64,000 nucleotides of DNA from positions 251,136 to 315,135 of the IMG/VR virus record IMGVR_UViG_3300037455_000543, one strand, 5' to 3'. Made by a program: the position numbers and the translations under genes. Below the pieces are notes generated by a model. The model had not been told where the DNA came from and did no database searches. It worked only from the letters and a program-made list of their open reading frames with translations. The stretch's first letter is position 1. Each line of letters opens with the position of its first letter. This DNA is from a virus (Duplodnaviria > Heunggongvirae > Uroviricota > Caudoviricetes). Below, piece after piece: positions 30,865-56,584 of the stretch.

Positions 30865-30947
30865 ACATTATTTATAATATAAAAATGACCAGGAGAAATT
30901 CCTGGTCATCTTTTTTGGAGGTTAACATTAAGTTCTAAAAGAGGTCA

Positions 30948-31265
30948 TTACCACTTATCGCTGGGCACAGCCTTTGTTCCCAAAAGATTAAGACCAGCTG
31001 TCACTTCCTCTGCAGTATCGCCTGTTATGATGGCAGCACCCCAATAACCGAAGTCTTTGTGAAAGACAGTCTTATAGAATCCTTTCCGACCAGATTCAGG
31101 AGTCAAGTTTTCATAAGCGAACGTCTTACGCAGACCAAACAGACCAAACATTCTGTCCTTGATGGTTGGATCCTTCTTCAAATCATCGAGCGAATTAAAT
31201 TCCGTCGATTTCGGTTCACCATCCGGTTCCGCAAATGTAGGATAATAAAGTGTAAGCTTTGTCAT
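30948..31265 (-). CDS. Hypothetical early protein
   Basis: AAGGAGG SD. Confidence 0.7.
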   Translation of the reverse strand: MTKLTLYYPTFAEPDGEPKSTEFNSLDDLKKDPTIKDRMFGLFGLRKTFAYENLTPESGRKGFYKTVFHKDFGYWGAAIITGDTAEEVTAGLNLLGTKAVPSDKW

Positions 31266-31275
31266 TTATTCCTCC

Positions 31276-31422
31276 TTAAGCTTTATGCCCCACATTCTGT
31301 CTGACCACAAGCTGGTCACCATCCGTAACCAACATAGGCGTCGAGTATTTCGGTTCAGCCGGTTCGTCATGTTCGTAATGAATTTCAGACGGGCAATACC
31401 AGAAAGTTCTCCATTTGTTCAT
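31276..31422 (-). CDS. Small hypothetical protein (48 aa)
   Basis: MNKWRTFWYC...; GAGG SD and early promoter. Confidence 0.5.
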   Translation of the reverse strand: MNKWRTFWYCPSEIHYEHDEPAEPKYSTPMLVTDGDQLVVRQNVGHKA

Positions 31423-31532
31423 TTTATTAACCTCTTTTGTTGTTCGTTATGTTTATAATATAGTTAAAAATCGGGGTCATGTAAACCTCGATTTATTCTA
31501 ATTATATTTTATGTTGGCCACTTGAAGATTAG

Positions 31533-32279
31533 TTATCTTCTTATCTTTATCCAGACAGTATCGGTATCTTCTCCTATTTTAATCCTGAGATGATTACATA
31601 CTGATTCGACATCAGCATCAATACCGTTTTCAATACAGTCCAGGAGTTTATTCCATGTGATATATTTCGTAACCCTGGTACTTGATTTCTGCTGGATTTC
31701 CGGTTTAACCTTGTATATACCGATTATATCCATCTTCTTGAGTTCAGAGATTTGTTCATCGGTTAGATTCTTGATTGGAACCAGATCATACGAAACCAGC
31801 TTGACCAGGAATGCATTGGCAAGGGTTTTCGTGGTTCTCATATTATAAATCTGCTTGTACTTCTTGTATTCTTCTTGTGTTGCGAATTGTTCAATATTAC
31901 CCAAATCATGTCCGTACATAGATTGAGCATATTTCGCCGTCTGTGTCCAGAGAGATCCATGACCTTTCCTGTAATGTCTGACATCCGGTTGTACCTTATT
32001 GACATACAGGTGAATCATCTCGTGAAGAATCGTATTAACCAGGATCTTCTTGTTATTTAACAACATCGGGTTAATCCAGATGTAATTATGTCCTAGTATT
32101 GTGATTGATAATCCGAATGGGTCTGATTCTTTATCCTCTTCCAGATCGAATATTTTCTTCGCATCTTCTTTCTTGTTCACGAAGATTGTACATTTACCAA
32201 GTTTCGTTCCCAACTCTTTCTGAAAGAAATCTTTGTTGAAAAAATCATAGACATATTGGCAATACTCTAAGTTAAACAT
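31533..32279 (-). CDS. SprT-like zinc metalloprotease
   Basis: TILHEMIH ... GHGSLW. Confidence 0.75.
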   Translation of the reverse strand: MFNLEYCQYVYDFFNKDFFQKELGTKLGKCTIFVNKKEDAKKIFDLEEDKESDPFGLSITILGHNYIWINPMLLNNKKILVNTILHEMIHLYVNKVQPDVRHYRKGHGSLWTQTAKYAQSMYGHDLGNIEQFATQEEYKKYKQIYNMRTTKTLANAFLVKLVSYDLVPIKNLTDEQISELKKMDIIGIYKVKPEIQQKSSTRVTKYITWNKLLDCIENGIDADVESVCNHLRIKIGEDTDTVWIKIRR

Positions 32280-32390
32280 AGTCCTCCCAGAATCTCATAC
32301 ATTATTTATAATGTCGATATTTGAGCCTGTAATAGAAGATACGTAATGTCCTATAAGAAAGATTCAGGAACTTCTTTATCATATTATACC

Positions 32391-32534
32391 TTAGAATTCG
32401 ATAACGCCACAGCCGCTGAGTACCATGCATCCTGAGGCCACCAACATGCCAACGCCAGATCCTGCGCAATAGCCACTTGCAATTCTACCGATACCGAACA
32501 TTGCGACGATTACAGCTGCACCAATTAAAAACAT
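32391..32534 (-). CDS. Small hydrophobic protein (47 aa)
   Basis: MFLIGAAVIVAMFG...; GGAG SD. Confidence 0.5.
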   Translation of the reverse strand: MFLIGAAVIVAMFGIGRIASGYCAGSGVGMLVASGCMVLSGCGVIEF

Positions 32535-32603
32535 TTAAACTCCTTTGGTTATTATTAATATAGGTTTTGTTTTTGGTTTTGTAAATGTCGTAGGATATCT
32601 ATC

Positions 32604-32852
32604 CTACATCAGTCTGTATCGCGGATGTTCGTTAATCTTCTTGATGTTTTCTTCGTATTTCTTCGCAGAATAACTCTTTCCATTGAATTCGATGGTATGG
32701 TCTTCGTAAACGAATCCACAAACCTTACCGTCGTTACGGACAATCATGTTGATGGGTTTCTTCATACCGAGTCTCTTACGTTGTTCTTCAAAGAATTCAG
32801 GAGTGAAGATTTCTACGACACCGTGGTTGGTTTGAACTTTGTTATTTGCCAT
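32604..32852 (-). CDS. Hypothetical early protein
   Basis: Promoter module and SD. Confidence 0.7.
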   Translation of the reverse strand: MANNKVQTNHGVVEIFTPEFFEEQRKRLGMKKPINMIVRNDGKVCGFVYEDHTIEFNGKSYSAKKYEENIKKINEHPRYRLM

Positions 32853-32934
32853 GTTTAACCTCTTCGTTATGTTTATAATATAGAAAAATCCAGACTTTTC
32901 GTAAGCCTGGACATTAAGGATTTGTCATCACCGT

Positions 32935-33159
32935 TTACCCGATGAATATCCATTTACCATAAAGGTCGACATGTTCCAATGATTCAAGTTCAATCTTCGT
33001 GTTCTTGGACAACGAATAAGATCCACCGAAGTTGTCGTCGACTTCAATCATCGCATCGCCATGTCCCTGGTCAATCAAAGCTTTGAGCTTGTCGGCCAGT
33101 TCCTGAACGGTCATTATGTGTTTTTTGTTGTTTTCGAGTTTCTCCTGAAGTGATTCCAT
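32935..33159 (-). CDS. Hypothetical early protein
   Basis: MTVQEL...L.....D phage motif; SD. Confidence 0.7.
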   Translation of the reverse strand: MESLQEKLENNKKHIMTVQELADKLKALIDQGHGDAMIEVDDNFGGSYSLSKNTKIELESLEHVDLYGKWIFIG

Positions 33160-33229
33160 TGTTTAATCTCCTTTGTTTTACATCTATAATATAGTTAAAT
33201 TCTGAAGATTCGTAAATGATTATCCAAGA

Positions 33230-33436
33230 TTAGAAATTATGAAGACTTCCACGAGCTTTGAGGTCATCAAATAAAGACATCCAGGCTTCATGTTCTCTTT
33301 CACGTTCTTCAATATACTTACGACGTTTTTCGTTTTCAATGTCGTTAATGACTTTGAAAATAAAAACAACAACTCCGATATAGAGAAGCATACAGGAACT
33401 GATGATAAGGGAACATGCTAAAGTAGGTTCATTCAT
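33230..33436 (-). CDS. Small membrane protein, probably leaderless
   Basis: TM segment; ATG 6 nt after TATATT. Confidence 0.55.
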   Translation of the reverse strand: MNEPTLACSLIISSCMLLYIGVVVFIFKVINDIENEKRRKYIEEREREHEAWMSLFDDLKARGSLHNF

Positions 33437-33533
33437 ATCTATAATATAGTTAAATTCTGAATATTTGTAAATGAGAAATGACCGGAATATTTCATCCGGT
33501 CATCTCTTGGAGGTTAACATAGAAAACCTTTCG

Positions 33534-33851
33534 TTAAACCAGCGACATAACCAGGCTAATTATTACGACACCGACGAATACGTAGCTAAACATTCCAATG
33601 ATGCACACGATAGAGCCCCACAAATCCTTCATGTGATAGGTCTTGTCGAGCAGCCATTCCATGAGCTTCACACCGACCCAGAGGAGCAGGATGAATCCAA
33701 CAATCATAATCACCACATCCATACCAGTGAGAGTGCACACCGTTCCCGGTGTATTGTGGTTGTTCATCATATGAATCATGTTCATTTGGTTAATCATGTT
33801 TGTGGTATTCATGTTATTCATAATGACGAAATGTGTTGTATTCATATTCAT
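33534..33851 (-). CDS. Membrane protein with M/N-rich N-terminus
   Basis: Two TM segments; GAGG SD. Confidence 0.6.
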   Translation of the reverse strand: MNMNTTHFVIMNNMNTTNMINQMNMIHMMNNHNTPGTVCTLTGMDVVIMIVGFILLLWVGVKLMEWLLDKTYHMKDLWGSIVCIIGMFSYVFVGVVIISLVMSLV

Positions 33852-33954
33852 AACCTCTTCGTTATGTTTATAATATAGATAATTCTGGATTTCTTGTAAA
33901 TGGGAAATGACCAAGATATTTCACTCGGTCATTCTAATAAGAAACAGATATCCG

Positions 33955-34245
33955 TTAGAAATTGATTCCTCTTACGAAACCACCACCGAATCCCCATTTT
34001 CCTTTAGACACAGAATATCCCCAACCATAGTGGAAACCCACATTACCATTATTTTCAACATGGATTTTACCGTCAGGACTCTTTTGACATTCAGAATCAA
34101 TTCCAATAAAACATACTGCAATTGTTAATGCAAATATTGCACCAATGAAAAAGTTCACAGATGAATCATTCTTTCGATTGATATAGCACAGAACCAAAAG
34201 GATTGCGAAGATTGCAAAAGAAATTGCTCCGATGTAAAATAACAT
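33955..34245 (-). CDS. Membrane protein with Gly/aromatic tail
   Basis: AGGAG SD; two TM segments. Confidence 0.6.
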   Translation of the reverse strand: MLFYIGAISFAIFAILLVLCYINRKNDSSVNFFIGAIFALTIAVCFIGIDSECQKSPDGKIHVENNGNVGFHYGWGYSVSKGKWGFGGGFVRGINF

Positions 34246-34255
34246 ATTAATCTCC

Positions 34256-34426
34256 TTAGGATTTATAAGTAAAAGATTCACTTTCCCCGATAGGTTCACC
34301 GTCAAGAACGAGTTGAATCGTCACAGTCTCGTAATTCGGGTCGGAACCATAACCATAACTAGTGTCCGTATCGACACGAATTGACAAATGTTCTTTTAAA
34401 TATGCTTTTAACTGTTCTTCATTCAT
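34256..34426 (-). CDS. Hypothetical protein, probably leaderless
   Basis: ATG 6 nt after TATATT. Confidence 0.55.
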   Translation of the reverse strand: MNEEQLKAYLKEHLSIRVDTDTSYGYGSDPNYETVTIQLVLDGEPIGESESFTYKS

Positions 34427-34499
34427 GTTCATAATATAGAAAAAACCAGAGTTTTCGTAAACCCTGGTTATATAATATTCTTGTTCAATCAACGATACG

Positions 34500-34946
34500 T
34501 TATTTAGTTATTTCGAATGCGACCATATATGGTTCTTTGAAATTCATCAGATCTGGACGGAACTTGATTGAAGGATTGTCGAACATTGCATCATAGAGAT
34601 AATCAGCTCTGTTCTTGAACGCAGTACGGACATTGAACTTGAATTCCTTGAAACCCATCTTCTTGAGTGTTTCGGTCATTTCAGGATAAATCCTGTCAGC
34701 CGAGCTGAGATAAGCAGATACGTCAATGACATTCTCATTCGGGTCATAACATTCTGTTGCTATTTCCCTGAAATCATCATCATATTCTTCGCAGATTTCA
34801 TCCCACAAATCATCACCTTCTGGTGTGTTTCTGATTTCATTCCAATGATTGAACTTTTGAAGAAAACCTTGGAGGAGTTCACTACCTTTAGATTCCACGA
34901 TATATCCTTTTTTATTTAAGATTGTTAATGCTTCGTCAAGTTTCAT
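34500..34946 (-). CDS. Late hypothetical protein with N-terminal A..IL..KGY.VES motif
   Basis: Late box at 34965-34972; AGGAG SD. Confidence 0.7.
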   Translation of the reverse strand: MKLDEALTILNKKGYIVESKGSELLQGFLQKFNHWNEIRNTPEGDDLWDEICEEYDDDFREIATECYDPNENVIDVSAYLSSADRIYPEMTETLKKMGFKEFKFNVRTAFKNRADYLYDAMFDNPSIKFRPDLMNFKEPYMVAFEITK

Positions 34947-35046
34947 AGATTCTCCTATTTTTATTATTTATAAGAGAATCTGGTATTTAATATAGTAAAT
35001 TCTGGGATTTTTGTAAATGGTTTTACGGTAAGAAATTTAACCTCTA

Positions 35047-35274
35047 TTAAAAATTAACCGAAGGTTTATACGACCAGAGTTTGACATCGAGGACATGACA
35101 ATCTCTCGTGACGTCATTCCATTCTCTGTCGACATAACAGAAATGAGGAATATCGCATGCGATGTAGAAATAACCACAGCGAGTCTTTCCGTTCTTCATA
35201 ACGAACATAACGTCGCTCTTATCGGTAGGAAGTTTTTCTTGAGGAGTAAACCATTCAATCGTTGTCGTAATCAT
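35047..35274 (-). CDS. DUF551-like small phage protein
   Basis: IEW.TPQEKLP ... V..W pattern. Confidence 0.55.
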   Translation of the reverse strand: MITTTIEWFTPQEKLPTDKSDVMFVMKNGKTRCGYFYIACDIPHFCYVDREWNDVTRDCHVLDVKLWSYKPSVNF

Positions 35275-35350
35275 ATTAACCTCTTCGTTATGTTTATAAT
35301 ATAGAAAAAACCGGAATTATTGTAAATCCCGGTTTCAACTTATTTTATTC

Positions 35351-35773
35351 TTAGACTCCACGGTCCAGTTCAGGTTTGCATCCTGGTTTCCAGTATTCGA
35401 TTGTTTCATATCCGTCACTGTAATAGTGTTCGGTTTCATATCCCATTTCATGGAAGATTTCTATAGCTTTTTTAACTTCTTCAATCAAACGGAATGAGAT
35501 GATACCGTTGTCGTTACCGGGTTTTAAATAACGTTCAACCTTTTCCTTAACCTGGTCAACCTGTTTTTTAATAAACCGGTCAATGATTTCATTTTCCCAT
35601 TTCTTAATCAGATATTTCTGAATGTCTTCGTAGACTTCATAGTATTTGACATAGTTCGGGTCATCTTCTTCTTTGATTCCCATGTCGTTCAGAATGTTAT
35701 CTGCAACGGAATCAATTGCTTCGTCAACAAGCGAATTGATACGAGTTTCAAAGTTCTTCAAGTCTGTTGCCAT
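35351..35773 (-). CDS. Hypothetical early protein
   Basis: Promoter module and SD. Confidence 0.7.
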   Translation of the reverse strand: MATDLKNFETRINSLVDEAIDSVADNILNDMGIKEEDDPNYVKYYEVYEDIQKYLIKKWENEIIDRFIKKQVDQVKEKVERYLKPGNDNGIISFRLIEEVKKAIEIFHEMGYETEHYYSDGYETIEYWKPGCKPELDRGV

Positions 35774-35854
35774 ATTGTTAATCTCCTTATGTTTATAATA
35801 TAGTAAAAAACACGGTCATAGTAACCGTGTTTAATTCTGAATTTTTTATTCAAG

Positions 35855-36220
35855 TCAACGGCGGTATCTTCTCGAGTAGGAGATAATTATGCATTTCTGG
35901 AGTTCGGCAAAGAACTGGTTCAAAGCAGTTCTTACCTGTTCTTCCGTTATGTCCTTGAAGTATCTCATCGAAATGTCTGAGCCGATCGGTCCATGTCTGC
36001 GGTCTTCGATACGGTTATTGCTTCCGATGTAAGGATTAAGGCAGAGATAACCGGGTCCTTGTCCGCCAGCAGGAAGCACGTAACGCGTTCCCTTATATTC
36101 AAATAATTCATCAGGATAGGATTCTCTCGGAAGGTAGTAATAATCCTTACCACAGGTAGCGTGTGGACCACGTTTAAAGCCGTAGCTTCTAACTATCTGG
36201 TCATATTGTTCAGACGTCAT
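35855..36220 (-). CDS. Hypothetical early protein
   Basis: Promoter module and SD. Confidence 0.7.
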   Translation of the reverse strand: MTSEQYDQIVRSYGFKRGPHATCGKDYYYLPRESYPDELFEYKGTRYVLPAGGQGPGYLCLNPYIGSNNRIEDRRHGPIGSDISMRYFKDITEEQVRTALNQFFAELQKCIIISYSRRYRR

Positions 36221-36347
36221 AGATGTATTATAACCTCTTCGTTATGTTTATAATATAGATAATTCTGGATTTTCTGTAAATAGGAAATGACCAGGATATT
36301 TCACCCGGTCATCCCACAGGAGGTTAACATGAAATTCAGTTTAACGG

Positions 36348-36596
36348 TTAGACAGCAGATTCCAGACACTTGTAACGGACATCATCTTCATTCTCCGAAG
36401 CGAACTCCATTACATAATCCAATGCTTCTTTATCTTCAGATTTGAAGGAGATAACATTGTCATTCTTTTCGAACGAAACCTTTTCAATGTCACCGTCATG
36501 TTCATGATGGATATTAAGACGTTGGAAATCCTCGAGGTCACTGAGACTGTCAAACGCAGCGTCTTCTGTGCAGTAAATAATCTTTCCCTTGAGCAT
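36348..36596 (-). CDS. Hypothetical acidic protein
   Basis: GAGG SD. Confidence 0.65.
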   Translation of the reverse strand: MLKGKIIYCTEDAAFDSLSDLEDFQRLNIHHEHDGDIEKVSFEKNDNVISFKSEDKEALDYVMEFASENEDDVRYKCLESAV

Positions 36597-36605
36597 TCAA
36601 TCCTC

Positions 36606-36890
36606 TTACTTTTCGATTGCTTGGAAGATAAAGTTTCCGACCCAATCCGCTTTCTTACTCCTGCCATTGACCTTGTAGATGAGAGTCACCGAACCAGTGT
36701 CTTCAGAGAAGTAACAAGGACCGGAGTAGTGGAACAGAGTGTCTCCCGTGAACGCATGCATCACCGTCACATCACGGTCGAGTTCGGAAAAGTCGGATTC
36801 GAATTCCTTGTACATCTGCGTGCAGGAGTTACATCCAGTAAAGATGCAGGCCACGAGAATGATGATTGCGAATACGATAAGTTTCTTCAT
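36606..36890 (-). CDS. Putative lipoprotein
   Basis: MKK + hydrophobic stretch + FTGC lipobox. Confidence 0.65.
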   Translation of the reverse strand: MKKLIVFAIIILVACIFTGCNSCTQMYKEFESDFSELDRDVTVMHAFTGDTLFHYSGPCYFSEDTGSVTLIYKVNGRSKKADWVGNFIFQAIEK

Positions 36891-36991
36891 TTTTTAATCT
36901 CCTTGTTGATTACCTTTATAATATAGTAAAACCGTCTACTAATGTAAACGGTCTCTATTGTAAAAAATGTGTCTGGTTATCGATTCAATAT

Positions 36992-37165
36992 TCAGTTAGT
37001 CATCGTCGCGGTAAGTTCAAGAATCTTGTATTTGTCATCTTTTATACCGTAGGTAGACATCGTATGTTTCACTTCATTCATTGCGTCTTCTTCCGAAGCT
37101 CCGTAAACATTGAATTCTGATTTTCTGTCATACCACTTCACTTTTGCGTTCCAACATTTAATCAT
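36992..37165 (-). CDS. Small late protein (57 aa)
   Basis: MIKCWNAKVKWY...; GAGGTG SD; late box at 37185-37192. Confidence 0.55.
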   Translation of the reverse strand: MIKCWNAKVKWYDRKSEFNVYGASEEDAMNEVKHTMSTYGIKDDKYKILELTATMTN

Positions 37166-37192
37166 AAATCACCTCACCATAATATATTTATA

Positions 37193-37510
37193 TCAGAGGT
37201 CGGATAAAATCAGTTCCATGTCGAGTATATCCTTGAATTCATACATATCTACCATTGTCTCTATAAGAAAGTCTTTGGGTTCACCGTTGACCTTTATCGT
37301 AACGTCATATACAGGAAGGAGGATTCCATTCATGATACTTGTATATTGGTCATAATCCACTTTTGGGACGATATACATTGAAAACACTGGTGTTTCCTTA
37401 TCCCCAAGAACATAGGTATGTAGATATGGTTTATTTGTGAATGTGTCCATACCGATAAAACAAGACTTAACAGTTATTTCAGACTCTGCAACGATATGTC
37501 CATCATACAT
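37193..37510 (-). CDS. Outlying member of the 25-30 kb paralog family
   Basis: DVTIKVNGEPKDFLIETMVDMYEFKDILDMELIL. Confidence 0.5.
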   Translation of the reverse strand: MYDGHIVAESEITVKSCFIGMDTFTNKPYLHTYVLGDKETPVFSMYIVPKVDYDQYTSIMNGILLPVYDVTIKVNGEPKDFLIETMVDMYEFKDILDMELILSDL

Positions 37511-37697
37511 GTCATGTTCTTTATATATTATATTAACCATTAAATTAAATATAGAATTATTTTTAAAAACTTTTTCTTTTTAATTTAATTCTGAAAATTT
37601 CGTCCAGTCAATATCCGTAGAGCCAGTTAGCCACTTATTACAGGTAAAAAGAAAGTGGACCGGAGTAGGTCCACAGTCCATGTCTCAGAGACTCAGA

Positions 37698-38096
37698 CTA
37701 GTTGAACATGGTGAAGAGAGAACCAAGGGCGTTCAGTCTTGCACCGAGAAGTCCAATGACTTTGGAAGTTGCAACAGACTTCACATTCTTCATCTTCTGG
37801 TAGACAGTTTCAACCTGTTCGGCAGTCAAGTTGATTTCGAGTTCTTCAGCAGAAGTGATGAAGTCTTCAATCTGGTCAACGACTTCCTTGTCAGTAGTCA
37901 CAGCTTCAAGAACAGTTGCAACCGGAGTTCCAGCGTAAGTTTCCTTCAAGTCGTTCAATGCGTTGAAGACTTTCACAGTAGATTTGATCTGTTCAATCTT
38001 ACCGTTGGAACCGACGTAGTTCTTCACGAGAGTCTGAGCTTCCGGAGAAGTCTGAGAGATGGTGTTGATGAGAGTGAGAAGGATTGTTTTGTTCAT
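37698..38096 (-). CDS. Hypothetical early protein
   Basis: Promoter module, SD, biased codon use. Confidence 0.7.
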   Translation of the reverse strand: MNKTILLTLINTISQTSPEAQTLVKNYVGSNGKIEQIKSTVKVFNALNDLKETYAGTPVATVLEAVTTDKEVVDQIEDFITSAEELEINLTAEQVETVYQKMKNVKSVATSKVIGLLGARLNALGSLFTMFN

Positions 38097-38222
38097 AGTT
38101 ATTAACCTCTTGTTGATGTGTATAATATAGTTAATTTTGGGCCTTTTGTAAATGAGGAAGAGAAGATTCTATTTCTAACGCTTCCTGTGCAATGTCCAGT
38201 TTTTTGCGAAGAATCCTCAATA

Positions 38223-38546
38223 TCAACCGTTAGATTTCAAGTAACCATACAGGAACAATAAACCATAGAATACAATACCAATTATGACATACCAAATAAC
38301 GTCTTTGATTACAGGGTCCAATCCCTTTTCTTTGTGAGCTTCTTTTTCTTTTTCGTATTCTTCAATGGTCTTCTGTTTGGGTTTATAACCATCATAGTAA
38401 CTTTCAAGATACTTTGCACCGTCACCATTTGCACAGTCCAGACACATAATTGCATTGGACATTCCACAGATACGTCCAGTCAGATATCCTTCATGCGGTT
38501 GGATTTCTCGACCACAGTAGATACACTTCTTTACTTCTTCAGCCAT
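38223..38546 (-). CDS. Zinc-finger protein with C-terminal membrane anchor
   Basis: CIYC...CLDC plus TM segment. Confidence 0.65.
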   Translation of the reverse strand: MAEEVKKCIYCGREIQPHEGYLTGRICGMSNAIMCLDCANGDGAKYLESYYDGYKPKQKTIEEYEKEKEAHKEKGLDPVIKDVIWYVIIGIVFYGLLFLYGYLKSNG

Positions 38547-38560
38547 ATTAACCTCCTATC

Positions 38561-38749
38561 TTAATAAATGGAAATTTCCTTGTCTTTGCCATCCGTCGCG
38601 ACATTCATTTCACAGAACTTACCAGAGTCTACATTACGAAGAGGCCACTTCTGATATTTCGGAGGAAGTCTCTGTAAGAACTTAATTAAGTCTTCGACAG
38701 TTTCAACATTCATTGCAAATTTCTTTTGTTTGGCACGCATCCAATTCAT
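38561..38749 (-). CDS. Hypothetical early protein
   Basis: TVEDLI..L..LP motif. Confidence 0.65.
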   Translation of the reverse strand: MNWMRAKQKKFAMNVETVEDLIKFLQRLPPKYQKWPLRNVDSGKFCEMNVATDGKDKEISIY

Positions 38750-38861
38750 TGTTTAATCTCCTTTGTTTTACATCTATAATATAGTTAAATTCTGAATATC
38801 TGTAAATAAGAAATGACCGGAATATTTCATCCGGTCATCTCGTAGGAGGTTAACATGAAAC

Positions 38862-39674
38862 TTATTTAATCATATCCAGGAACTGTTCAACCGTAATCAT
38901 TTCCGTTCCCTGTTTACGGGCTTTGTTTGCCTTACCCGATGTAGAGTTCAGGTCTTGCATAACTAAGTAAGTCAATCCCTTCTTCACGTCGTCGAAGTTT
39001 TCACCGCCGTTTTCTTTAACCATTTTCTGTAAATCACTTCTCTTGTATTCCATTGCTCCAGTGAAACAGAAACTCTTTCCGGTCAATTTACCTTCAACCT
39101 TTTCTTCTTCGGTGATTTCGACATACTTCAACGTTTCCCGCATGTCTTCAATATTCTTGACAATACCTGAATGAAGTTTTTCCGAAAGGATTTCACCAAT
39201 ACCGTCACAGACGAACCGATAAGGGTTTTCACCGACGAAACCTTCGAGGTTTTCAATCTTCTTGGCAGAAATAATCTTGACAATTTGTTTTTCACCGATA
39301 CCGGAAATATTATAACCAGCAATCAACTTTGCAAGAGTCATTTTCTTATGAGAATTGATTTCCTTCTTAATGTTTTCCCAGTTCTTACCGAGAATCGGAC
39401 TTAACACAGTATCACCCTTCTCCTGATCTTTATAGAGTCCAGATACCGTCATGAACAATCCGTTGTCCTGAATGGTCTGAATAGTCGTAAGACCGAGTTC
39501 CTTAATCTTCTGAACGTCCGTCCACTTCAGGATAGTTCCACTAAGCTTGGAAGGACAACAGTTATTCGTACAGAAGATACGGGTATGGTTTTCATTGATG
39601 TCAAGTTCTGAACCACAAGCAGGACAGACAGTAGGAAGATTCCAGTTATGAAGTTTGATAATGTTCTCAATCAT
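38862..39674 (-). CDS. ligA: NAD-dependent DNA ligase, C-terminal part (Zn finger, HhH, BRCT)
   Basis: PTVCPACGS...CTN..CP; GIG HhH motifs; LTGKSFCFTG...R...V...GG...GKANKARKQG. Confidence 0.9.
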   Translation of the reverse strand: MIENIIKLHNWNLPTVCPACGSELDINENHTRIFCTNNCCPSKLSGTILKWTDVQKIKELGLTTIQTIQDNGLFMTVSGLYKDQEKGDTVLSPILGKNWENIKKEINSHKKMTLAKLIAGYNISGIGEKQIVKIISAKKIENLEGFVGENPYRFVCDGIGEILSEKLHSGIVKNIEDMRETLKYVEITEEEKVEGKLTGKSFCFTGAMEYKRSDLQKMVKENGGENFDDVKKGLTYLVMQDLNSTSGKANKARKQGTEMITVEQFLDMIK

Positions 39675-39712
39675 GTTTATAATATAGTAAATTCTGGGTT
39701 TTTTGTAAATGG

Positions 39713-40344: not shown

Positions 40345-40432
40345 TGTTTAACCTCTTGTTTATACTATTAATATAGATCTTTTTATCGATGTTGTAAATG
40401 GCCTCGATTGTAAAACCTAATTAACAGTCTCC

Positions 40433-44443: not shown

Positions 44444-44506
44444 ATACTATTTATAACGTTAAAGACTGCCCCTGTAAGGACAGTCTTCTATAAAATAATC
44501 AGAATT

Positions 44507-47332: not shown

Positions 47333-47396
47333 ACAATATTTATAACGAAAAAGACTGCCTCATAAGAGACAGTCTTCAGCAGAATAGGAAATTCTG

Positions 47397-47654: not shown

Positions 47655-47664
47655 TGTAACTCCT

Positions 47665-47904: not shown

Positions 47905-47985
47905 TTTAACCTCTTGCTTATGTCTATAATATAGAAAAAGGACTGACTTCTGTCAATCCTTCTCTAGGAGATTTATGGTAACAGT

Positions 47986-49153: not shown

Positions 49154-49447
49154 AATTTCCTCTTGTTGGTTATAATATAGCAAATTCCGTAGATTCTGTC
49201 AATCCATATTTTTAGAATAAAACGATTTAGTTATCACCCTTGGTCTTGGTTTCCTCGGAACGCGGAGTAGTCGCAATCACGACACCGCAACCAATCAGAA
49301 TCAAACTACCGAATACTGCTACCATATAACCTCCATTGTTATACCTATAATATAGATAATTCTGAACTTTTTGTAAAGAAAAAAGACTGGAATATTTTAT
49401 CCAGTCAACGAAGATAACAATGGACAAAAGGAAAAATAGTCAGTCGG

Positions 49448-49801
49448 CTACTTTCCTTCAGTGAACAGTTTATACTGGTCAAGACAAACGGTTTCGATGA
49501 CATCAATCGTTTCGTTGATCTTGTTTTCCAGAGTGAACGGTGAATCATCGAACAGATTTCCGAAACTGTGCCAGTAGCTTGCTCTTGTGTTATAACGATC
49601 TCCGTCCATTGTAGTCATCACACAGAAGATCATGTCGTCGATATGCTTATAAATCGACAACTTATAACCCTTGTTTTCCTTGTCCCACAGTTCGACAGAA
49701 CCGTACTTCTCTTTAATGAGCAGTTTGCAACGGAAGACGAAATCGCCACTGTTAAAGTTCAGTTTTACGGTATTGCCGTTAATTTCGATTTTATATTTCA
49801 C
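49448..49801 (-). CDS. Hypothetical early protein
   Basis: GTG start with AGGAG SD. Confidence 0.6.
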   Translation of the reverse strand: MKYKIEINGNTVKLNFNSGDFVFRCKLLIKEKYGSVELWDKENKGYKLSIYKHIDDMIFCVMTTMDGDRYNTRASYWHSFGNLFDDSPFTLENKINETIDVIETVCLDQYKLFTEGK

Positions 49802-49991
49802 GTGTTAATCTCCTTTCGATTATGATTATAATATAGTAAATTTCATATGTATTGTCAATACGAAAAAATCAGAATTATTTCATTAGTCATCCGGCGAGGC
49901 CATCGAGAACTGCGCTTAATATAATAAACTTAAAAGAAACCTGCCGAGGGTTAACTCGACAGGTTCAACAGGAGGTTAACATGAAAATCCT

Positions 49992-50978
49992 TTACGGAAC
50001 ATACAGAATTGTGGGATTGTCCTTATGAACATCACACATCTTCATCCAGAACTGATTCTTCAGGCAATAACCGTACCAGTAGAAATCAATCATGTGAAGA
50101 TCCCAATCACTGAGCTTATTCATCTTGAAAGAAATCTTGTTCTTATCCTTCTTAATAGTTTCATGTTCAGGAAGGAAAGATTCGAAATCCTTTGCCTTGT
50201 CCAGATACACATCCGTAAGTTCGAATGTCGTATACTTATTTTCAGGGTCAGTGAAAACTCTTGGAGTAGGTAACGTGATTCCGTTATCCTTACAGAAGTT
50301 ATTCCACTTTTCCGTCATGGTTTGCATATTGAACGGCTTGGAGATGATATGCTTACCATTCTTCGTCGGGATGATAGGAGTTTCATCCATAACACCCTTA
50401 ATAGTTCTTTCGGTAGCAAGTTCAAGACTTACTTCTTCACTAAGTTCAAGCTGATCACAGTAACCCTTTAATTTTTCTGCTTCAGACTTGATATGTCGTA
50501 CATACGGTTCACATTCGAACATCATCCTTAACATATCTTCCTGATACGGAACATATTCCTTATCGAGGTCAACAATCCATGTCTTATCATTTCCAGCAGA
50601 ACATACTTGTCCAGCAGCGGATGCGACGAGATGATAAGGAGAGTTAAACGTTTCACCAGACTTACATTGCTGGGCAATATGCATCATCATTTCCAGTGCG
50701 ATACTCTTGAATGTTCTCTTGTTGAGTCTGATGTAAGCTCGGACATTGAACATATCACACATCTTGATGATATCTTCCTTCACCTTATCGAAATAGTCGA
50801 GCGAGGGGATGAGATAATCCTTGATGGAACGTGAATGCATGTTGCCGTGATAACGCGGGTCAGCCACACCGTTCGTATGAGGGTCATCACTCTGACGCCT
50901 CAGTAATTGCACATAATAGCAATCGCCTTCGTCTTCGAATTTAAGTAAGCTTCTGATTTGGTCAAAATTATTTACCAT
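49992..50978 (-). CDS. Putative AEP (primase-polymerase) superfamily protein
   Basis: WIVDLD and PTKNGKHII resemble the DxD and sxxGxH motifs. Confidence 0.5.
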   Translation of the reverse strand: MVNNFDQIRSLLKFEDEGDCYYVQLLRRQSDDPHTNGVADPRYHGNMHSRSIKDYLIPSLDYFDKVKEDIIKMCDMFNVRAYIRLNKRTFKSIALEMMMHIAQQCKSGETFNSPYHLVASAAGQVCSAGNDKTWIVDLDKEYVPYQEDMLRMMFECEPYVRHIKSEAEKLKGYCDQLELSEEVSLELATERTIKGVMDETPIIPTKNGKHIISKPFNMQTMTEKWNNFCKDNGITLPTPRVFTDPENKYTTFELTDVYLDKAKDFESFLPEHETIKKDKNKISFKMNKLSDWDLHMIDFYWYGYCLKNQFWMKMCDVHKDNPTILYVP

Positions 50979-51051
50979 TGTCGTTAATCCTTCTGTTATT
51001 ATATAATATAGTAAGTTATTACGGTAATGTAAACCTGTTTTACCCTACAGA

Positions 51052-51357
51052 TTACCTTGTGCCATCATCTATCACAACGGATTCTGTTCCATCCTGTGAT
51101 TTGATTTCTGTTGGAAGAACAGCATATTGTGTAACGGATTCGAATGAGCGTGGTTCTGTGACATGACATGCGTATGGCCACCAACCCAACTTCTTACTTC
51201 TCTTGTTCCGAACGAGTTGAACTTGCATCAACGTGTAACGTCTCGTATCTCCCCAGTATGTGCAGACAAGACCAAGAACAACATGGTTAAGCAAATACTC
51301 CATAGAGTTCTCAGTAACTGGTACAAATTGTAACGTAGTTTCCAAAATCTTATTCAT
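51052..51357 (-). CDS. Hypothetical early protein
   Basis: Promoter module and SD. Confidence 0.65.
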   Translation of the reverse strand: MNKILETTLQFVPVTENSMEYLLNHVVLGLVCTYWGDTRRYTLMQVQLVRNKRSKKLGWWPYACHVTEPRSFESVTQYAVLPTEIKSQDGTESVVIDDGTR

Positions 51358-51455
51358 TTATTAACCTCTTCGTTATGCTTATAATATAGTAAAAGACATG
51401 GCCATTGTAACCATGTCTAATTCTGGATTTTCCTTACAGTTTACACCACTGCAAT

Positions 51456-51770
51456 TCAATCGTTGTCATGAGGAACTTCTACGAGTTCAGCGCCGTCACA
51501 GTGATGAATCCGATAGATCTTACCTTCGACTTCTTTAATCTTGATGTCTGCGCCGAAACCGTTATATTCCGCCGGAGTTAAAGATTCAAGGGTTTCGATA
51601 AGGACAGGATCATGACGTTTGATGTTGTAACCAGTTCTGATCTCACTTTCAGTAGGACAACCAACCATGGTTCCGTTACGCTTTTCATAAATCTCCATGA
51701 ACCGGATAATTGCAGTGTCAGAAAGTTTGAATCCACCGTAATCATCATTGTATGCAACTTTAAGTGACAT
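51456..51770 (-). CDS. Conserved phage hypothetical protein
   Basis: N..YGGF.LS..A ... RHDP.L ... Y.I...DG.E pattern. Confidence 0.65.
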   Translation of the reverse strand: MSLKVAYNDDYGGFKLSDTAIIRFMEIYEKRNGTMVGCPTESEIRTGYNIKRHDPVLIETLESLTPAEYNGFGADIKIKEVEGKIYRIHHCDGAELVEVPHDND

Positions 51771-51786
51771 GTTTTATCTCCTTTTA

Positions 51787-52005
51787 TTATCCTTCGTAAC
51801 CGTAAATGAAAATACCATCAGGGCAATGAATTTCATGCTGTACCTTATGAACTCCTGCATGGAAACTATTCCAATACGGTTTGGTATAAGTTCCAGCAAC
51901 GAATCCGGCGAATTGTTCCCTAGTTAATCCCTTCCACCATTCATGGGTTTCGGAATCAAAGATGTTGAAAACTTCGTAAGAGTTGTAGGTTGGTTTTTTC
52001 GACAT
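51787..52005 (-). CDS. Hypothetical early protein
   Basis: Promoter module and SD. Confidence 0.65.
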   Translation of the reverse strand: MSKKPTYNSYEVFNIFDSETHEWWKGLTREQFAGFVAGTYTKPYWNSFHAGVHKVQHEIHCPDGIFIYGYEG

Positions 52006-52080
52006 ATGTTAATCTCCTGTTTGTTTATAATATAGAAAAATCCAGAGTTTTCGTAAACCCTGGATATAATAATGTTCTGT

Positions 52081-52305
52081 TTAGCCAAATGTATAAGACA
52101 CAGTTTTCGTCATCTTCATCACAGTAAGTGTCTGTCCGGGAAAATTCTTTTCGAGATATTCTTTCCGTTCGTTCGCAGACTTTTCGTTATCCCACTTCAT
52201 TGCCCATTCCGGTGAGTTACAATAGACGATATGTTTCTTGCCAGCGAAGGACCAGTTCTGAACTGCTTTCCCTGTTCTGGTATTCAGTATGATGTATTTT
52301 TCCAT
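52081..52305 (-). CDS. Hypothetical protein
   Basis: Coupled to the upstream lipoprotein gene. Confidence 0.6.
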   Translation of the reverse strand: MEKYIILNTRTGKAVQNWSFAGKKHIVYCNSPEWAMKWDNEKSANERKEYLEKNFPGQTLTVMKMTKTVSYTFG

Positions 52306-52306
52306 G

Positions 52307-52582
52307 TTACTTACCGTTATAAAGCGGATTGATTTGTTTCACTGCTTGGTAATTCGAGATGTTATGAAAAGTTCTTCCATCATCACAGATGAGCATCGGA
52401 TAATGCATATATGCTCCAGTGTTTTCCCGTGTCAATCGACCGACACATTCAATACCTCCAGGAAGGATGTAAGTCATGTGAGAGTCTTTGAAGCTCATGT
52501 CATATTGTTCTTGACAACCAGCTGCGACCATTGCTATTCCGATGGGAATCACGACCATTAGAGTAAGGATAAGTTTCTTCAT
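52307..52582 (-). CDS. Putative lipoprotein
   Basis: MKK + hydrophobic stretch + AAGC. Confidence 0.6.
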   Translation of the reverse strand: MKKLILTLMVVIPIGIAMVAAGCQEQYDMSFKDSHMTYILPGGIECVGRLTRENTGAYMHYPMLICDDGRTFHNISNYQAVKQINPLYNGK

Positions 52583-52638
52583 TGTTTAACCTCTTGTTGA
52601 TGTTTATAATATAGTAAATTCTGAATTTTTTGTAAACC

Positions 52639-52851
52639 TTATACTATGGTTCCTATTGTTACAGGCACCCCTACAAAGAACAGTGTCACGAGCAAAGAGA
52701 TGAAAAGGATCTCAGCAATCTTGAGAAGGACATAAGTTCCAATTGCAATGATCGTCTTTCCGAGACAACCACAATTGTTACCGAACTTTCCAACGATAAT
52801 GGCCGTCACAATCACGTTAAAGATGAAGAGAAGAAATCCGAGAAAAGACAT
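52639..52851 (-). CDS. Small membrane protein
   Basis: Two TM segments; GGAGG SD. Confidence 0.6.
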   Translation of the reverse strand: MSFLGFLLFIFNVIVTAIIVGKFGNNCGCLGKTIIAIGTYVLLKIAEILFISLLVTLFFVGVPVTIGTIV

Positions 52852-52933
52852 TCATAACCTCCGTGTTATGATTATAATATAGAAAAAACCGGTTATTTTG
52901 TAACCGGTTCTATTCTGATTTTTCTGTTTCAGC

Positions 52934-53380
52934 CTACTCTTCGAGTTCGAACGAGTATTGTCCCGCGTAACATGGACCTGTGACCTTCTCTTCCAATCCG
53001 TTTTCTTTTTCGAAACATTGTACGATGTCAGAGAGATGGGTACAATCCAAAACACCAACGAACTTACGGAGAACCTTGATTTCGTCCCACGTAATCGGAT
53101 CGGCTTCTTCCAACCAACCTTGTACGTCTTCTACCGACATTTCATAGTATTCATGATTGTCATCATCAACGGTGACTTCGGGATCACATTCGTTGATTCG
53201 GTTGAGCAATTCTTCCTTTTGCTTTTCCGTAACGATAATCTTTTCCTTGCACCATGGACCGGAACCGCATTCGAAATCTACACAATAGAACTTCTTACTT
53301 GCGAGTTCATCTACGGTAAGTTTGCGACGGTCGCGGTTAATGTCAACTGCTCTTCTTAACTTAGGCATTATGTACTCCAT
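52934..53380 (-). CDS. Hypothetical early protein
   Basis: Promoter module upstream. Confidence 0.65.
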   Translation of the reverse strand: MEYIMPKLRRAVDINRDRRKLTVDELASKKFYCVDFECGSGPWCKEKIIVTEKQKEELLNRINECDPEVTVDDDNHEYYEMSVEDVQGWLEEADPITWDEIKVLRKFVGVLDCTHLSDIVQCFEKENGLEEKVTGPCYAGQYSFELEE

Positions 53381-53583
53381 TTGTTAATCGTTATGTTCAT
53401 AATATAGAAAATTCTATTGTTTTTGTAATAAAAAACGACCAGAACTTTTGCTCTAGTCGTCTTTCGGAGGTTAACATGAAACTCTTTTAACAGTAGTATG
53501 CCAGAGTCACACAGAATCCAATCGCAACTGCGAATTCAATAATGTCTTCTGTAATCATTAAGAACTTTTTCATTTTCTACTCC

Positions 53584-53781
53584 TTATCCGACAAATCCCG
53601 CAATTCCACCAAACACGAACGTAATTCCCTTCGCTTCGGTCTTAACGATGTCGGTAACGAAATAGACCGCGGAAGTAATCGTGTTACAGAGATGTTTGAC
53701 ACAGTTATAATCACCAACAATCATTCCGATGACGAAGAAGATTGCGAGAACGATGAGTGTGATAGTCAGGACTTTGGACAT
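53584..53781 (-). CDS. Small membrane protein
   Basis: GGAGG SD; TM segment. Confidence 0.6.
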   Translation of the reverse strand: MSKVLTITLIVLAIFFVIGMIVGDYNCVKHLCNTITSAVYFVTDIVKTEAKGITFVFGGIAGFVG

Positions 53782-53850
53782 GGTGTAACCTCCGTTGTTT
53801 GATTATAATATAGTTAATCTAGGACCATTTGTAAGTGGGAAAACTCAGAA

Positions 53851-54135
53851 TTAACTTTTACAGTCACCAGTGGCACACTTTCTCAAGAATTCTTCAAACA
53901 GGTTGATACCGTATTCTTTGTCATCCCATGGGATTGCAGTTGTCGACCACGGTTCCACGTAGACACAGAACATCGTACCACAGACGAAGACAGATTCGAG
54001 ATCCAGACGATAATGTAAACCGTCCAGATCACTGTCCCAATTATTGGAAAAATTCTTCATCATCGTTTCCGCTTCTTCTACGGTGTCGAATTCGATGACG
54101 AACGTGTGGTGTTTACGGTCAATATTCCATTTCAT
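53851..54135 (-). CDS. Hypothetical early protein
   Basis: Promoter module and SD. Confidence 0.65.
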   Translation of the reverse strand: MKWNIDRKHHTFVIEFDTVEEAETMMKNFSNNWDSDLDGLHYRLDLESVFVCGTMFCVYVEPWSTTAIPWDDKEYGINLFEEFLRKCATGDCKS

Positions 54136-54214
54136 ATTTAACTCTCCTGTTTGTTTATAATATAGAAAAATCCAGAGTTTTCGTAAACCCTGGATATTCT
54201 GGATTTTCTTTCAG

Positions 54215-54433
54215 TTATCGCTTGATTTTTACTTTTTGCGTACATGAATGCAGTTCGCTAGAATGTTTCTTGAAACAATTACTACAGACATATACAAGTA
54301 AATTGTCACGGTTCTTCCCATAAAGTCTGAACGAACCATCATTCTTCTTATGACACCAGTGACAACGTTTTTCTTTGTCGTTTCCACCAAGGTAGTTCAA
54401 CATTTTTGTTTCATCGTTTGAATAGTGAGGCAT
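54215..54433 (-). CDS. Small zinc-finger protein
   Basis: CHWC...CSNC. Confidence 0.6.
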   Translation of the reverse strand: MPHYSNDETKMLNYLGGNDKEKRCHWCHKKNDGSFRLYGKNRDNLLVYVCSNCFKKHSSELHSCTQKVKIKR

Positions 54434-54530
54434 TGTAATCTCCGTTAATCATCCCAACCGTTTTCGTCACCGAAACCTTCTCCAATCGCTTGGATAACCT
54501 GTAGACAGATAGAAAAGAACTTCTTAATCA

Positions 54531-54785
54531 TTATTCAACCTCCTTGAACCAACGTTGGAGATTATCCTTGAGTTCTTTTTCATCTGGAAAAGAATAATCT
54601 TCCGCCCAACAGACCAGAACCGAGAACTGTTTGTCAGAACCAGTGATGAAAAAGTTTTCAAGACCATTTGCATCGTAGTAATTGTCCATACGGTTACAGA
54701 TATATTCTACCTGACTTTCCGTCGCTCCAGAGAGTTCAAGAGTGATGACATCGACGGTGCTGTTGAAGTCAATTTCGATTTCCAT
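54531..54785 (-). CDS. Hypothetical early protein
   Basis: Promoter module and SD. Confidence 0.65.
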   Translation of the reverse strand: MEIEIDFNSTVDVITLELSGATESQVEYICNRMDNYYDANGLENFFITGSDKQFSVLVCWAEDYSFPDEKELKDNLQRWFKEVE

Positions 54786-54979
54786 AAGTTAATCTCCTAT
54801 TTTTATTATAATATAGTTAATTCTGGGCGATTTGTTAATGTAAAATAATCAGAATTGTTTGCTCAGACAGCATTAGTAGCTTTAATCTACAGAAAAGTCA
54901 GGAGTCTTTATCGACTCCCGACCACTTCTTCCGGGTACATACCAGTGGACCAGGTCGGATCGCTCCGGCTTGTTCTGTA

Positions 54980-55318
54980 TTACATACACAATACTGTTAT
55001 CACACTGAAAAACATAAATCCGATCGAAATCTTAGACAGCAAATCAGTCTTAATGTTCTTACATGTTCCACATTCAATTCCGTTCAAATTCCAGATGTAA
55101 GGATTGTATGAATGAAAATCATAACCATTATCCCAGTCATGGAAATGATCATATCTCGGTTCTTCATACATTCCACCGTCTCGAAGAAGTTTGAATCCGT
55201 TTCGACCAACATACTGGATGAGTTCTTTCTTCGTCATCTTATGTTTGACAGTCTGTGTTCCAGCACAGCCAGCCTGATAAGTTACAGACACATTGTAGAT
55301 TCTTTTTTCTTGATTCAT
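54980..55318 (-). CDS. Hypothetical protein whose 3' end is a decayed duplicate of the neighbouring gene
   Basis: In frame after its stop: ...DPTWSTGMYPEE, matching 55475 protein. Confidence 0.5.
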   Translation of the reverse strand: MNQEKRIYNVSVTYQAGCAGTQTVKHKMTKKELIQYVGRNGFKLLRDGGMYEEPRYDHFHDWDNGYDFHSYNPYIWNLNGIECGTCKNIKTDLLSKISIGFMFFSVITVLCM

Positions 55319-55474
55319 AATTAACCTTCCTTTTGTTTCACAAAAGATAGAAAAATTTTTGATTTTTGTATATAAAAAATCTAGAATTATAATTAATCAG
55401 ACAGCATTAGTAGCTTTAATCTACAGAAAAGTCAGGAGTCTTAATTGACTCCCGTCCACTTCAGAGACTGGAGG

Positions 55475-55969
55475 TTAATCCCATTCCTTACAGAGTTTCT
55501 TGTTTTCAAGATCCTTGAAGATTCCCTTCCAGTTGTTGTAACAATCGTCGAAGTATTCTTCCGGGTACATACCGGTGGACCAGGAGGAAGGATCTTCATC
55601 GTGAGAGGGTTCGTCTTCACCACAAATCACACACAATACCATCCTGACAACTTCTCGAATGTCCGGAGATACATAATCCATATCATCCCACTTCGTAGTT
55701 TCACCGTCACTGGTCTGTTCCAGATGATAAACGAGGTGGTAGAACGGATTCTCGTCCTTGTCGTCATGTTTCCAACAGATGGTGAGATGTCCTTCCGTAC
55801 ATTCCGGTTTGTCTTCACAGTAAGTGTGAATCTTGATGATGTCGAAGTTCTTTTCGTAAGTCAACTTTACGTCGACAGACGGGAAAGACCGAGCGATGTA
55901 GACTTGATTACCGAAGTCTTTGTTGATTCGTCCGATGATTTCAAAGATGTTGATGTTTTCTTTTTTCAT
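55475..55969 (-). CDS. Hypothetical early protein
   Basis: Promoter module and SD. Confidence 0.7.
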   Translation of the reverse strand: MKKENINIFEIIGRINKDFGNQVYIARSFPSVDVKLTYEKNFDIIKIHTYCEDKPECTEGHLTICWKHDDKDENPFYHLVYHLEQTSDGETTKWDDMDYVSPDIREVVRMVLCVICGEDEPSHDEDPSSWSTGMYPEEYFDDCYNNWKGIFKDLENKKLCKEWD

Positions 55970-56054
55970 GTGTTAATCTCCTTTCGATTATGACTATAAT
56001 ATAGAAAAAATCCAGAATTGTGTCAACCCTGGATTAAAGATTCTTATGTTGTGG

Positions 56055-56420
56055 TTAGCCATTATAGTCTTTGAAGAACTTCATATAACTGTTCCAAGCT
56101 TTCATGAACTTCGGTTTAGTCAGTGATTCCCAAGACAATACTCTGTCTTCCAGCCTCACTGTGACGGAAGGCATTTTGTCTTCGTCAAAACTGTAATACT
56201 GAACCGTTCCGTCCATGAACTTGATTTCCACACTCTTGAATCCGTCACAATCGTTCATTACGACGGAATAGACATGACCAATCCCTTCGAGACTTGTATT
56301 CGGCCAAAAAGACATTTCAGTTCCATATTTGTTCTTGGTGATGTTCACGATTCCCTTGTCAGACTGAGAGGCGAAGGCGATAGAGACGATGAGGAGAGCG
56401 AAGATGATGATTTTTTTCAT
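56055..56420 (-). CDS. Secreted protein
   Basis: MKKIIIFALLIVSIAFA signal peptide. Confidence 0.65.
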   Translation of the reverse strand: MKKIIIFALLIVSIAFASQSDKGIVNITKNKYGTEMSFWPNTSLEGIGHVYSVVMNDCDGFKSVEIKFMDGTVQYYSFDEDKMPSVTVRLEDRVLSWESLTKPKFMKAWNSYMKFFKDYNG

Positions 56421-56584
56421 GTTATTTTCCTTTTTGTTTGATTACAAGATAGTTAATTCTGAACTTCTTGTAAGTAGAAAATGTTAGAATTTAAATATAC
56501 AGTCGACATTCGTAGACATAATCAACAAAAAAACCTGGACCGTAACAGATCCAGGTTCTTCTCGGAAAGGGGTGATTAACAAAA

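Follow-up and report, generated by a model that had tools for sequence, protein, structure and literature searches.

Introduction

In Bacillus subtilis, anti-Shine-Dalgarno (aSD)-like 8- to 12-mers located more than 450-500 nt from a ribosome-binding site (RBS) pair with the RBS, shorten the half-life of the mRNA and cut translation (preprint PMC12697547). In that work, carried out with a library of 8-mer and 12-mer reporters, messages with aSD-like 8-mers at +467, which paired with the Shine-Dalgarno (SD) sequence, had a half-life of 1.7 instead of 11 min, protein was still 44% lower with a 12-mer placed more than 500 nt downstream, and aSD-like sequences were found to be depleted from native genes (PMC12697547). 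The anti-SD (UCCCCUG) in the untranslated 3' region (3' UTR) of Staphylococcus aureus icaR pairs with the 5' UTR of the same mRNA (PMC3868564), and a 5'/3'-UTR interaction has been described for B. subtilis hbs (PMC5737220). Promoter-early stem-loop (PeSL) cassettes have been described in T4-like phages (PMC2839356, PMC4122927), and in T4, read-through transcripts keep the RBSs of genes e, soc, 49 and I-TevI hidden (PMC3014915). Here we analyze a short aSD-like element, hereafter the box, in the 3' UTRs of early genes of a giant T4-like rumen phage, within a stretch of 64,000 nt (the window; bases 251136-315135 of virus record IMGVR_UViG_3300037455_000543). The core of the box is an invariant 8-mer in front of stand-alone terminators, complementary to the early start sites, and we tentatively propose that it acts by folding back on the first start site of its own transcript.

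The phage record comprises 424,163 bp with direct terminal repeats and 35% G+C and encodes a T4 Gp23-type capsid protein (Pfam Gp23, 1.9e-68). Megablast found no match among deposited phage genomes, and gut metagenomes and metatranscriptomes of cattle, sheep and goats contain DNA near-identical to that of the phage. From about 30.4 kb to past the right end of the window, the minus strand carries nearly all genes. This early block contains about 50 open reading frames (ORFs), mostly small, each with an upstream TTTACA-N17-TATATT promoter (13 minus-strand sites in 10 kb, and the same promoter in about 30 intergenic gaps), and its start sites have the form GAGGTTAA..ATG or GGAGATTAA..ATG. Many gaps have the -35 element within a hairpin, the T-run of which is the promoter spacer; 16 hairpins hold the -35 element in the loop.

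These cassettes resemble PeSLs. Sigma-70-like early promoters are fused to stem-loops that stand at or overlap the promoter and are followed on the 3' side by an SD and an ATG start codon, and they recur as repeats between small ORFans in a hyperplastic region of a Gp23-type, T4-like phage, where they bound insertions and deletions (indels). A one-gene insertion between relatives is bounded by cassettes, and strain deletions bounded by cassettes segregate in the sequencing runs, with the joints within the cassettes. The published descriptions cited here differ in that they give an AT-rich upstream region and no anti-SD box (PMC2839356, PMC4122927).

Results

An invariant core in front of stand-alone terminators

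The 12-mer GGAGGTTAACAT occurs six times in the window, always on the plus strand, compared to a chance expectation of 0.01 copies estimated from shuffles. In the sense of the minus-strand mRNAs, all six copies (Table 1) lie between the stop codon of an ORF and a T-tailed hairpin, as stated in the original prediction, an earlier note made from the letters of the window; the copy at 53466 follows a 28-codon ORF and not the 65-aa gene. That note had treated the 16-mer GGAGGTTAACATGAAA as the conserved unit, which did not hold: the 16-mer is exact at 4 of the 6 sites and has 2 mismatches at the other two, and a scan of the 424,163-bp genome in both orientations yielded no further match within 2 mismatches. 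The conserved core is the 8-mer UAACCUCC, invariant across four phages and extended in this phage to (UUUC)AUGUUAACCUCC. The 424-kb genome holds nine copies of the core, all in one early-gene block, two of them just past the right end of the window (genome 315760 and 317255). The partial copy that had been noted at 55470 is real; it consists of the core TAACCTCC, the TAA of which is the stop codon of the preceding gene. Two elements that had been listed as variants lack the core: the one at 56566 found no support, whereas the one at 47966 is predicted by folding to pair with the SD of its unit (see below).

In mRNA order, the stop codon is followed by about 5-23 nt (1 nt at 38845), (UUUC)AUGUUAACCUCC, 0-7 nt, the hairpin, a T-run and, usually, a promoter. 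Across the 58-kb early block, the sense strand contains 11 TAACCTC words, 9 of which are followed by a terminator hairpin within 15 nt; these nine are the six 12-mer copies, the copy at 55470 and the two copies beyond the window. Windows of at most 15 nt 5' of terminators make up about 2% of the early block (binomial chance ~1e-14 for 9 of 11). About 30 copies from the phage and its relatives all have the same orientation relative to transcription. The motif is strictly mRNA-sense, and its placement beside terminators is far from random. The adjoining hairpins belong to at least 4 sequence families, where at least 3 unrelated hairpins had been claimed. None of the 16 promoter-embedded hairpins has a box; the box marks stand-alone terminators and not hairpins with a -35 element, which is a further difference from the PeSLs.

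The same core precedes the same kind of hairpin in three relatives, namely G001 (complete, 415.7 kb), the 47.5-kb fragment G002 and the fragment G003, which have a mosaic gene content and share about 72% protein identity. G002 contains 4 copies of the 16-mer, one of them with a single mismatch, which have the same anatomy, other hairpins and mostly non-orthologous positions. G001 and G003 contain no 12-mer; they carry a type 2 box, UUUUUCCA-UAACCUCC-UGAUGAUGA, before hairpins of the same GATGAC...GUCAU family, and G002 has one type 2 copy. Behind the homolog of gene 33534-33914, the orthologous site carries type 1 in the phage studied here (G000) and type 2 in G001 and G002, which indicates that the two types are homologous.

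When 16 copies from the four phages are aligned, TAACCTCC does not vary and accounts for 8 of the 13 invariant columns. In the hairpin of the same alignment, 98.4% of the cells are paired and 8 of 12 pairs changed on both sides (covariation score 0.55 vs. 0.26 in shuffles, with 0 of 500 shuffles reaching the observed value). For the ortholog pair 53466 and 17237 of G002, the box is identical and the promoter almost identical, and the hairpin was rewritten with compensation. This speaks for selection acting on the box's primary sequence and against simple co-duplication or homogenisation of the cassettes.

These data also bear on the rival that fares best, although we consider it unlikely, namely that the box has no function in RNA and is either a site in the DNA, recognized for instance by a DNA-binding or recombination protein of the phage, or the relic of an inverted start site that spreads along with the mobile cassettes and is homogenised with them. 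The region is shuffled into a mosaic, and indels between relatives and among strains are bounded by cassettes; copies stand at non-orthologous places, and the ortholog of the 328-aa gene has no box in three relatives; in literal terms, the motif is the translation initiation region (TIR) of its own cassette in inverted form; and the core includes a stop codon, to which type 2 adds UGAUGAUGA. Homogenisation, however, should even out the linker and the hairpin as well, both of which vary freely, and the strain junctions fall in the promoter and TIR parts of the cassettes, not at the box. A fixed orientation relative to transcription likewise speaks against this explanation, and neither a DNA role nor a pure relic accounts for invariance beside a freely drifting hairpin.

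Several other candidates were rejected. A mini-ORF on the minus strand that reads AUG UUA ACC UCC... and extends into the hairpin has no SD and inconsistent frames and lengths, and its AUG is missing from type 2 and from the variants. A back-up stop would have to be in frame with the real stop, which is the case for the box TAA in just 2 of 6 copies, and a fixed distance between box and promoter holds for only about 6 of 10 copies. Among database searches, the only Rfam match was BSnc120, whose 31 bits fall short of the gathering score (114 bits). Scanning viral contigs with the 16-mer was uninformative (at least 118 matches, which are ordinary gene starts of unrelated phages); with a pattern of motif plus promoter, relative G002 was the sole find among viral contigs, and metagenome contigs gave unrelated DNA only.

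Complementarity to early start sites and predicted pairing

The complement of the box, GGAGGTTA, is the consensus of the early start sites, GAGGUUA(A), and the early block has 27 sense TIRs with GAGGTTA. Duplexes with the 16-mer reach -12 kcal/mol or better for 30% of the early-block TIRs and for 6% of other genes, whereas shuffled motifs reach this value in 0-4%; genes with the late motif, which are largely leaderless by prediction, have a median of -5.1 kcal/mol. Where the last C differs in copies of the relatives (TAACCTCA/G/T), the commonest form of the start site, AGAGGTTA, is still matched. The claim that the motif is complementary to the phage's own early RBSs is thereby borne out; it is the early class of TIRs that matches, not the late or leaderless genes.

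Predicted transcripts were folded whole, from 7 nt past the -10 element to the terminator. In all 22 box-bearing units (7 from this phage and 15 from the three relatives), ensemble folding predicts pairing of the first SD with the box, with probabilities (P) of 0.64-1.00. In the predicted ensembles of the six units in the window, the box pairs with the SD of the promoter-proximal gene (P 0.74-1.00), and internal SDs pair with it at 0.00. Of the 17 SD-led early-block units without a box, with a median P of 0.05, only 3 reach 0.6 or more, and each of these has an aSD-like 3' UTR of its own, including the 47966 variant (P 0.85). Although the contrast between units with and without a box is partly built in, it indicates that in these models no competing local structure would block the 5'-3' pairing. 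When the last 130 nt are folded, the CCUCC of the box is unpaired with a probability above 0.5 in 9 of 13 copies, whereas in the full-length units the box is predicted to be paired in cis.

Weaker pyrimidine words, AAAUCCUUAAU and UUUCCUUUU, are found in the boxless 3' UTRs near 32853-32934 and 49428-49447, where first-SD pairing is predicted at P 0.90 and 0.70, respectively.

A possible fold-back mechanism

As the explanation that we prefer, though with somewhat less than even confidence, we suggest that the element is a 3'-UTR anti-RBS box on PeSL-like terminator/promoter cassettes, acting by 5'-3' fold-back. The box is part of the 3' UTR of early units that have a stand-alone intrinsic terminator at their end. 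When transcription has reached the 3' end, the SD and spacer (GAGGUUA/GGAGGUUA) of the first gene behind the promoter would become the partner of the single-stranded box on that mRNA; this fold-back would hide the start site, new initiation would stop after the first co-transcriptional rounds, and the mRNA would probably decay faster. The analysis establishes the position, orientation, invariance and complementarity of the box and its predicted pairing, whereas pairing in vivo and a repressive effect are inferences. The original prediction had offered two mechanisms, small RNAs acting in trans and 5'-3' fold-back of the complete transcript; the second gains in silico support from 22 of 22 units, and the argument for the first is weakened (see below). 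The earlier observation is confirmed and extended; fold-back, held with the less than even confidence given above, is the best supported half of its interpretation, which as a whole is partly supported.

A number of points weigh against fold-back. The folding is partly circular, given that the box is complementary to the TIR consensus by definition, and minimum free energy (MFE) and ensemble predictions on RNAs of 300-1500 nt leave out ribosomes and co-transcriptional folding. In silico replacement of the core freed the SD in just 2 of 5 units. One box could mask only one TIR of a multi-gene unit, and the transcript from the own promoter of the ligase C-half would be leaderless, which would leave its box without an SD partner. 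Further, plus-oriented early cassettes at 340-380 kb have no box, nor do most cassettes in the minus-strand early block that holds the nine copies; being absent from so many early cassettes, the box is no general requirement. The metatranscriptome and metagenome runs were examined as contigs, which carry no strand, end or level information; contig ends fall at repeated cassettes in DNA runs too and, hence, are no guide to RNA ends.

Like icaR and hbs, the units described here have a pyrimidine anti-SD in the 3' UTR that is complementary to the SD of the same mRNA, with long-range pairing, in this case predicted. The two bacterial cases concern single genes, whereas here an invariant 8-mer stands on about 30 unrelated phage transcripts, is fixed beside the terminator, is carried by mobile cassettes and is known from sequence and folding. 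The likeness to the B. subtilis library lies in the physical mechanism, a distal aSD-like word that pairs with the RBS. The difference is that such words are depleted from native genes there and conserved here, which implies selection for an effect; and since anti-SD-like words are normally selected against in bacterial genes, the conserved phage copy would represent a natural use of RBS occlusion. If this is true, long-range occlusion would be employed in a modular fashion, conserved at a fixed place on many unrelated early transcripts. Because the box travels with mobile promoter/terminator cassettes, a newly captured gene would inherit a built-in expression limit, which may suit toxic host-takeover genes. 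The idea is directly testable in reporters, as the box is short, its partner is defined and the compensatory mutations are obvious.

Other modes of action

Enterobacterial 3'-UTR-derived small RNAs, for example CpxQ and SroC, have a single-stranded seed directly 5' of an intrinsic terminator. The box has the same layout, with the difference that this putative seed would be generic for a whole class of start sites. Stable box-terminator decay fragments might accordingly titrate SD-led early, and perhaps host, start sites in trans and so contribute to ending early translation, to which leaderless late mRNAs would be immune; among the rivals, we place this one second and rate it as quite unlikely. 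It would fit with the seed adjoining the terminator, with the mostly unpaired state predicted for the box in the last 130 nt (9 of 13 copies), with complementarity to the early TIR class as a whole but not to late genes, which are largely leaderless (TATAAATA-N4-ATG in 24 of 37), and with the presence of nine copies on transcripts that have near-consensus promoters. However, the typical duplex of 7-9 bp is about as strong as SD:16S pairing, so that a large excess would be needed, and host SDs would match CCUCC alone. The original prediction took the ligase C-half to favor action in trans; its start indeed lies directly past its -10 element, without an SD, but this argument fails, as the gene also lies on a longer SD-led transcript that carries the same box. 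This predicted 1,558-nt unit runs from promoter 40398-40370 to behind the ligase C-half, and its first SD pairs with the box at P 1.00.

A bolder reading, to which we assign a still lower likelihood, is a clade-wide, cassette-borne translational timer: all early units with such a terminator at their end would self-silence their SD-led first gene on completion, accumulating box-terminator fragments would serve as decoys for the 16S tail, and ribosomes would be shifted from SD-led early to leaderless late messages. If true, this would make the timer an RNA-only analog of the early shut-off by RegB/RegA in T4. A homolog of the RegA-type T4 translational repressor is encoded outside the window, at genome 236587-236898 (Pfam Translat_reg, 1.7e-22); Pfam RegB was not found in a search that had no positive control.

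The third rival, which we think improbable, is read-through silencing, in which the box would pair with the start site of the next gene past the terminator and leave translation of that gene to the transcript from its own promoter. The order of anti-RBS, terminator, promoter and RBS is that of T4 e, soc, 49 and I-TevI (PMC3014915), the anti-RBS lying upstream of the promoter and the RBS downstream, again in a T4-like phage. MFE structures of read-through RNA pair the box with the downstream TIR at 38845 and 49971, and a 13-bp match (-17.5 kcal/mol) links the variant box at genome 317255 with the TIR that follows it. Across the copies, however, agreement with the downstream TIR is not consistent, with percentile ranks from 0.01 to 1.0, and a cognate match of the box to the downstream TIR or to the TIR of the adjoining gene was not found; the predicted partner, unlike in the T4 genes, is the unit's own upstream TIR. 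Moreover, several of the downstream genes are without an SD or leaderless in appearance (30864, 33436, and those at three or four type 2 copies in relatives), and the downstream promoters are of the same early class, which leaves no T4-like temporal logic.

Finally, it is very improbable that the box serves on the plus strand to start translation (SD, spacer, ATG, AAA), bringing ribosomes to an antisense RNA or to a mini-ORF, the latter having been named in the original prediction: although the 16-mer is a perfect start site, used as an ordinary gene start in many unrelated phages, and the -10 element is symmetric and reads TATAAT on the plus strand, the ORFs (4, 4, 15 and 38 aa) are unrelated and not conserved, two window copies have ATT or ATA instead of ATG, the ATG of type 2 stands just 2 nt past GGAGG, the spacer TTA is invariant and the ATG is not, the opposite of what a start site needs, and no plus-strand promoter of at least 9/12 lies upstream of any copy. 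A promoter-like TTGATA-17-TATAAT (11/12) at 39655-39683 on the plus strand uses the symmetric -10 of the ligase C-half promoter, and divergent transcription is possible in this cassette.

Feature coordinates and further observations

Table 1. Box copies, terminator hairpins and an early promoter in the window (positions in window coordinates; strand is that of the transcript).
Feature	Position	Strand	Context
Box copy, mRNA CUUAAUGUUAACCUCC	30917..30932	-	3' UTR of ORF 30948-31265
Box copy, mRNA UUCUAUGUUAACCUCC	33509..33524	-	3' UTR of gene 33534-33914
Box copy, UUUCAUGUUAACCUCC	36319..36334	-	3' UTR of ORF 36348-36596
Box copy, UUUCAUGUUAACCUCC	38845..38860	-	Begins 1 nt past the stop of the ligase C-half (38862-39674)
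Box copy, UUUCAUGUUAACCUCC	49971..49986	-	3' UTR of the 328-aa gene 49992-50978
Box copy, UUUCAUGUUAACCUCC	53466..53481	-	5 nt past the stop of the 28-codon ORF 53487-53573; ortholog is G002 copy 17237
Core-only copy, UAACCUCC	55470..55477	-	UAA is the stop codon of gene 55475-55969; followed by folded region 55418-55469 with CGGGAGTC hairpin
Weak variant CCAUAAAUCUCC, no core	47966..47977	-	Before a promoter-embedded hairpin; predicted pairing with the unit's SD
Terminator hairpin, GATGAC family	30882..30912	-	A-tract before, T-tract after; plus-strand terminator score too
Terminator hairpin, GATGAC family	33474..33507	-	Followed by promoter 33471-33443
Terminator hairpin, GATGAC family	36280..36317	-	Followed by promoter 36280-36252
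Terminator hairpin, GATGAC family	38810..38841	-	Followed by promoter 38806-38778
Terminator hairpin, CCTGTCGAG...CTCGGCAGG, family unrelated to GATGAC	49937..49966	-	
Terminator hairpin	53430..53465	-	Diverged from the G002 ortholog through compensatory changes
Early promoter example, TTTACA-N17-TATATT	40370..40398	-	SD-led first TIR of the unit (GAGGUUAAAC) is the predicted partner of box 38845

The 28-codon ORF in front of the box at 53466 is hydrophobic, has its own SD and lies between gene 53584-53781 and the box. It is missing at the orthologous site of G002, where the box directly follows the gene.

Genome-wide, TATAAATA lies within 22 nt of the start codon in 37 predicted genes, and the 24 mentioned above combine a gap of exactly 4 nt with the lack of an SD; examples in the window are 44444-44506, 47333-47396 and 30865-30947. 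The arrangement TATAAATA-N4-ATG suggests leaderless late mRNAs from T4-type late promoters. Some early promoters have the ATG about 6-7 nt past the -10 element (the ligase C-half, 39675-39712, and gene 33230-33436, 33437-33471), and by their sequence these early mRNAs would be leaderless too. Several downstream genes beside boxes in the relatives are likewise leaderless-looking.

Promoter-embedded cassettes (window 54136-54214 and 52006-52080; genome 314-323 kb) open at the stop codon with another conserved word, (GA)TAACTGAA(A), which supplies stops in two frames.

A search for relatives with the ligase C-half found none. Contigs of 1 DNA run and 2 RNA-library runs join 40360 to 39673, a joint that removes the two-gene cassette separating the halves of the NAD-ligase, and strains without the ligase insertion therefore coexist. 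Other strain joints are 38555-38777, with loss of a 62-aa gene, and 33173-36231, a loss of 3 kb, all of them within cassette sequences. The gene at 36606-36890 encodes a 94-aa protein that is 95% identical to a G002 protein and has a weak PHROG match to recombination directionality factors (8.7e-06).

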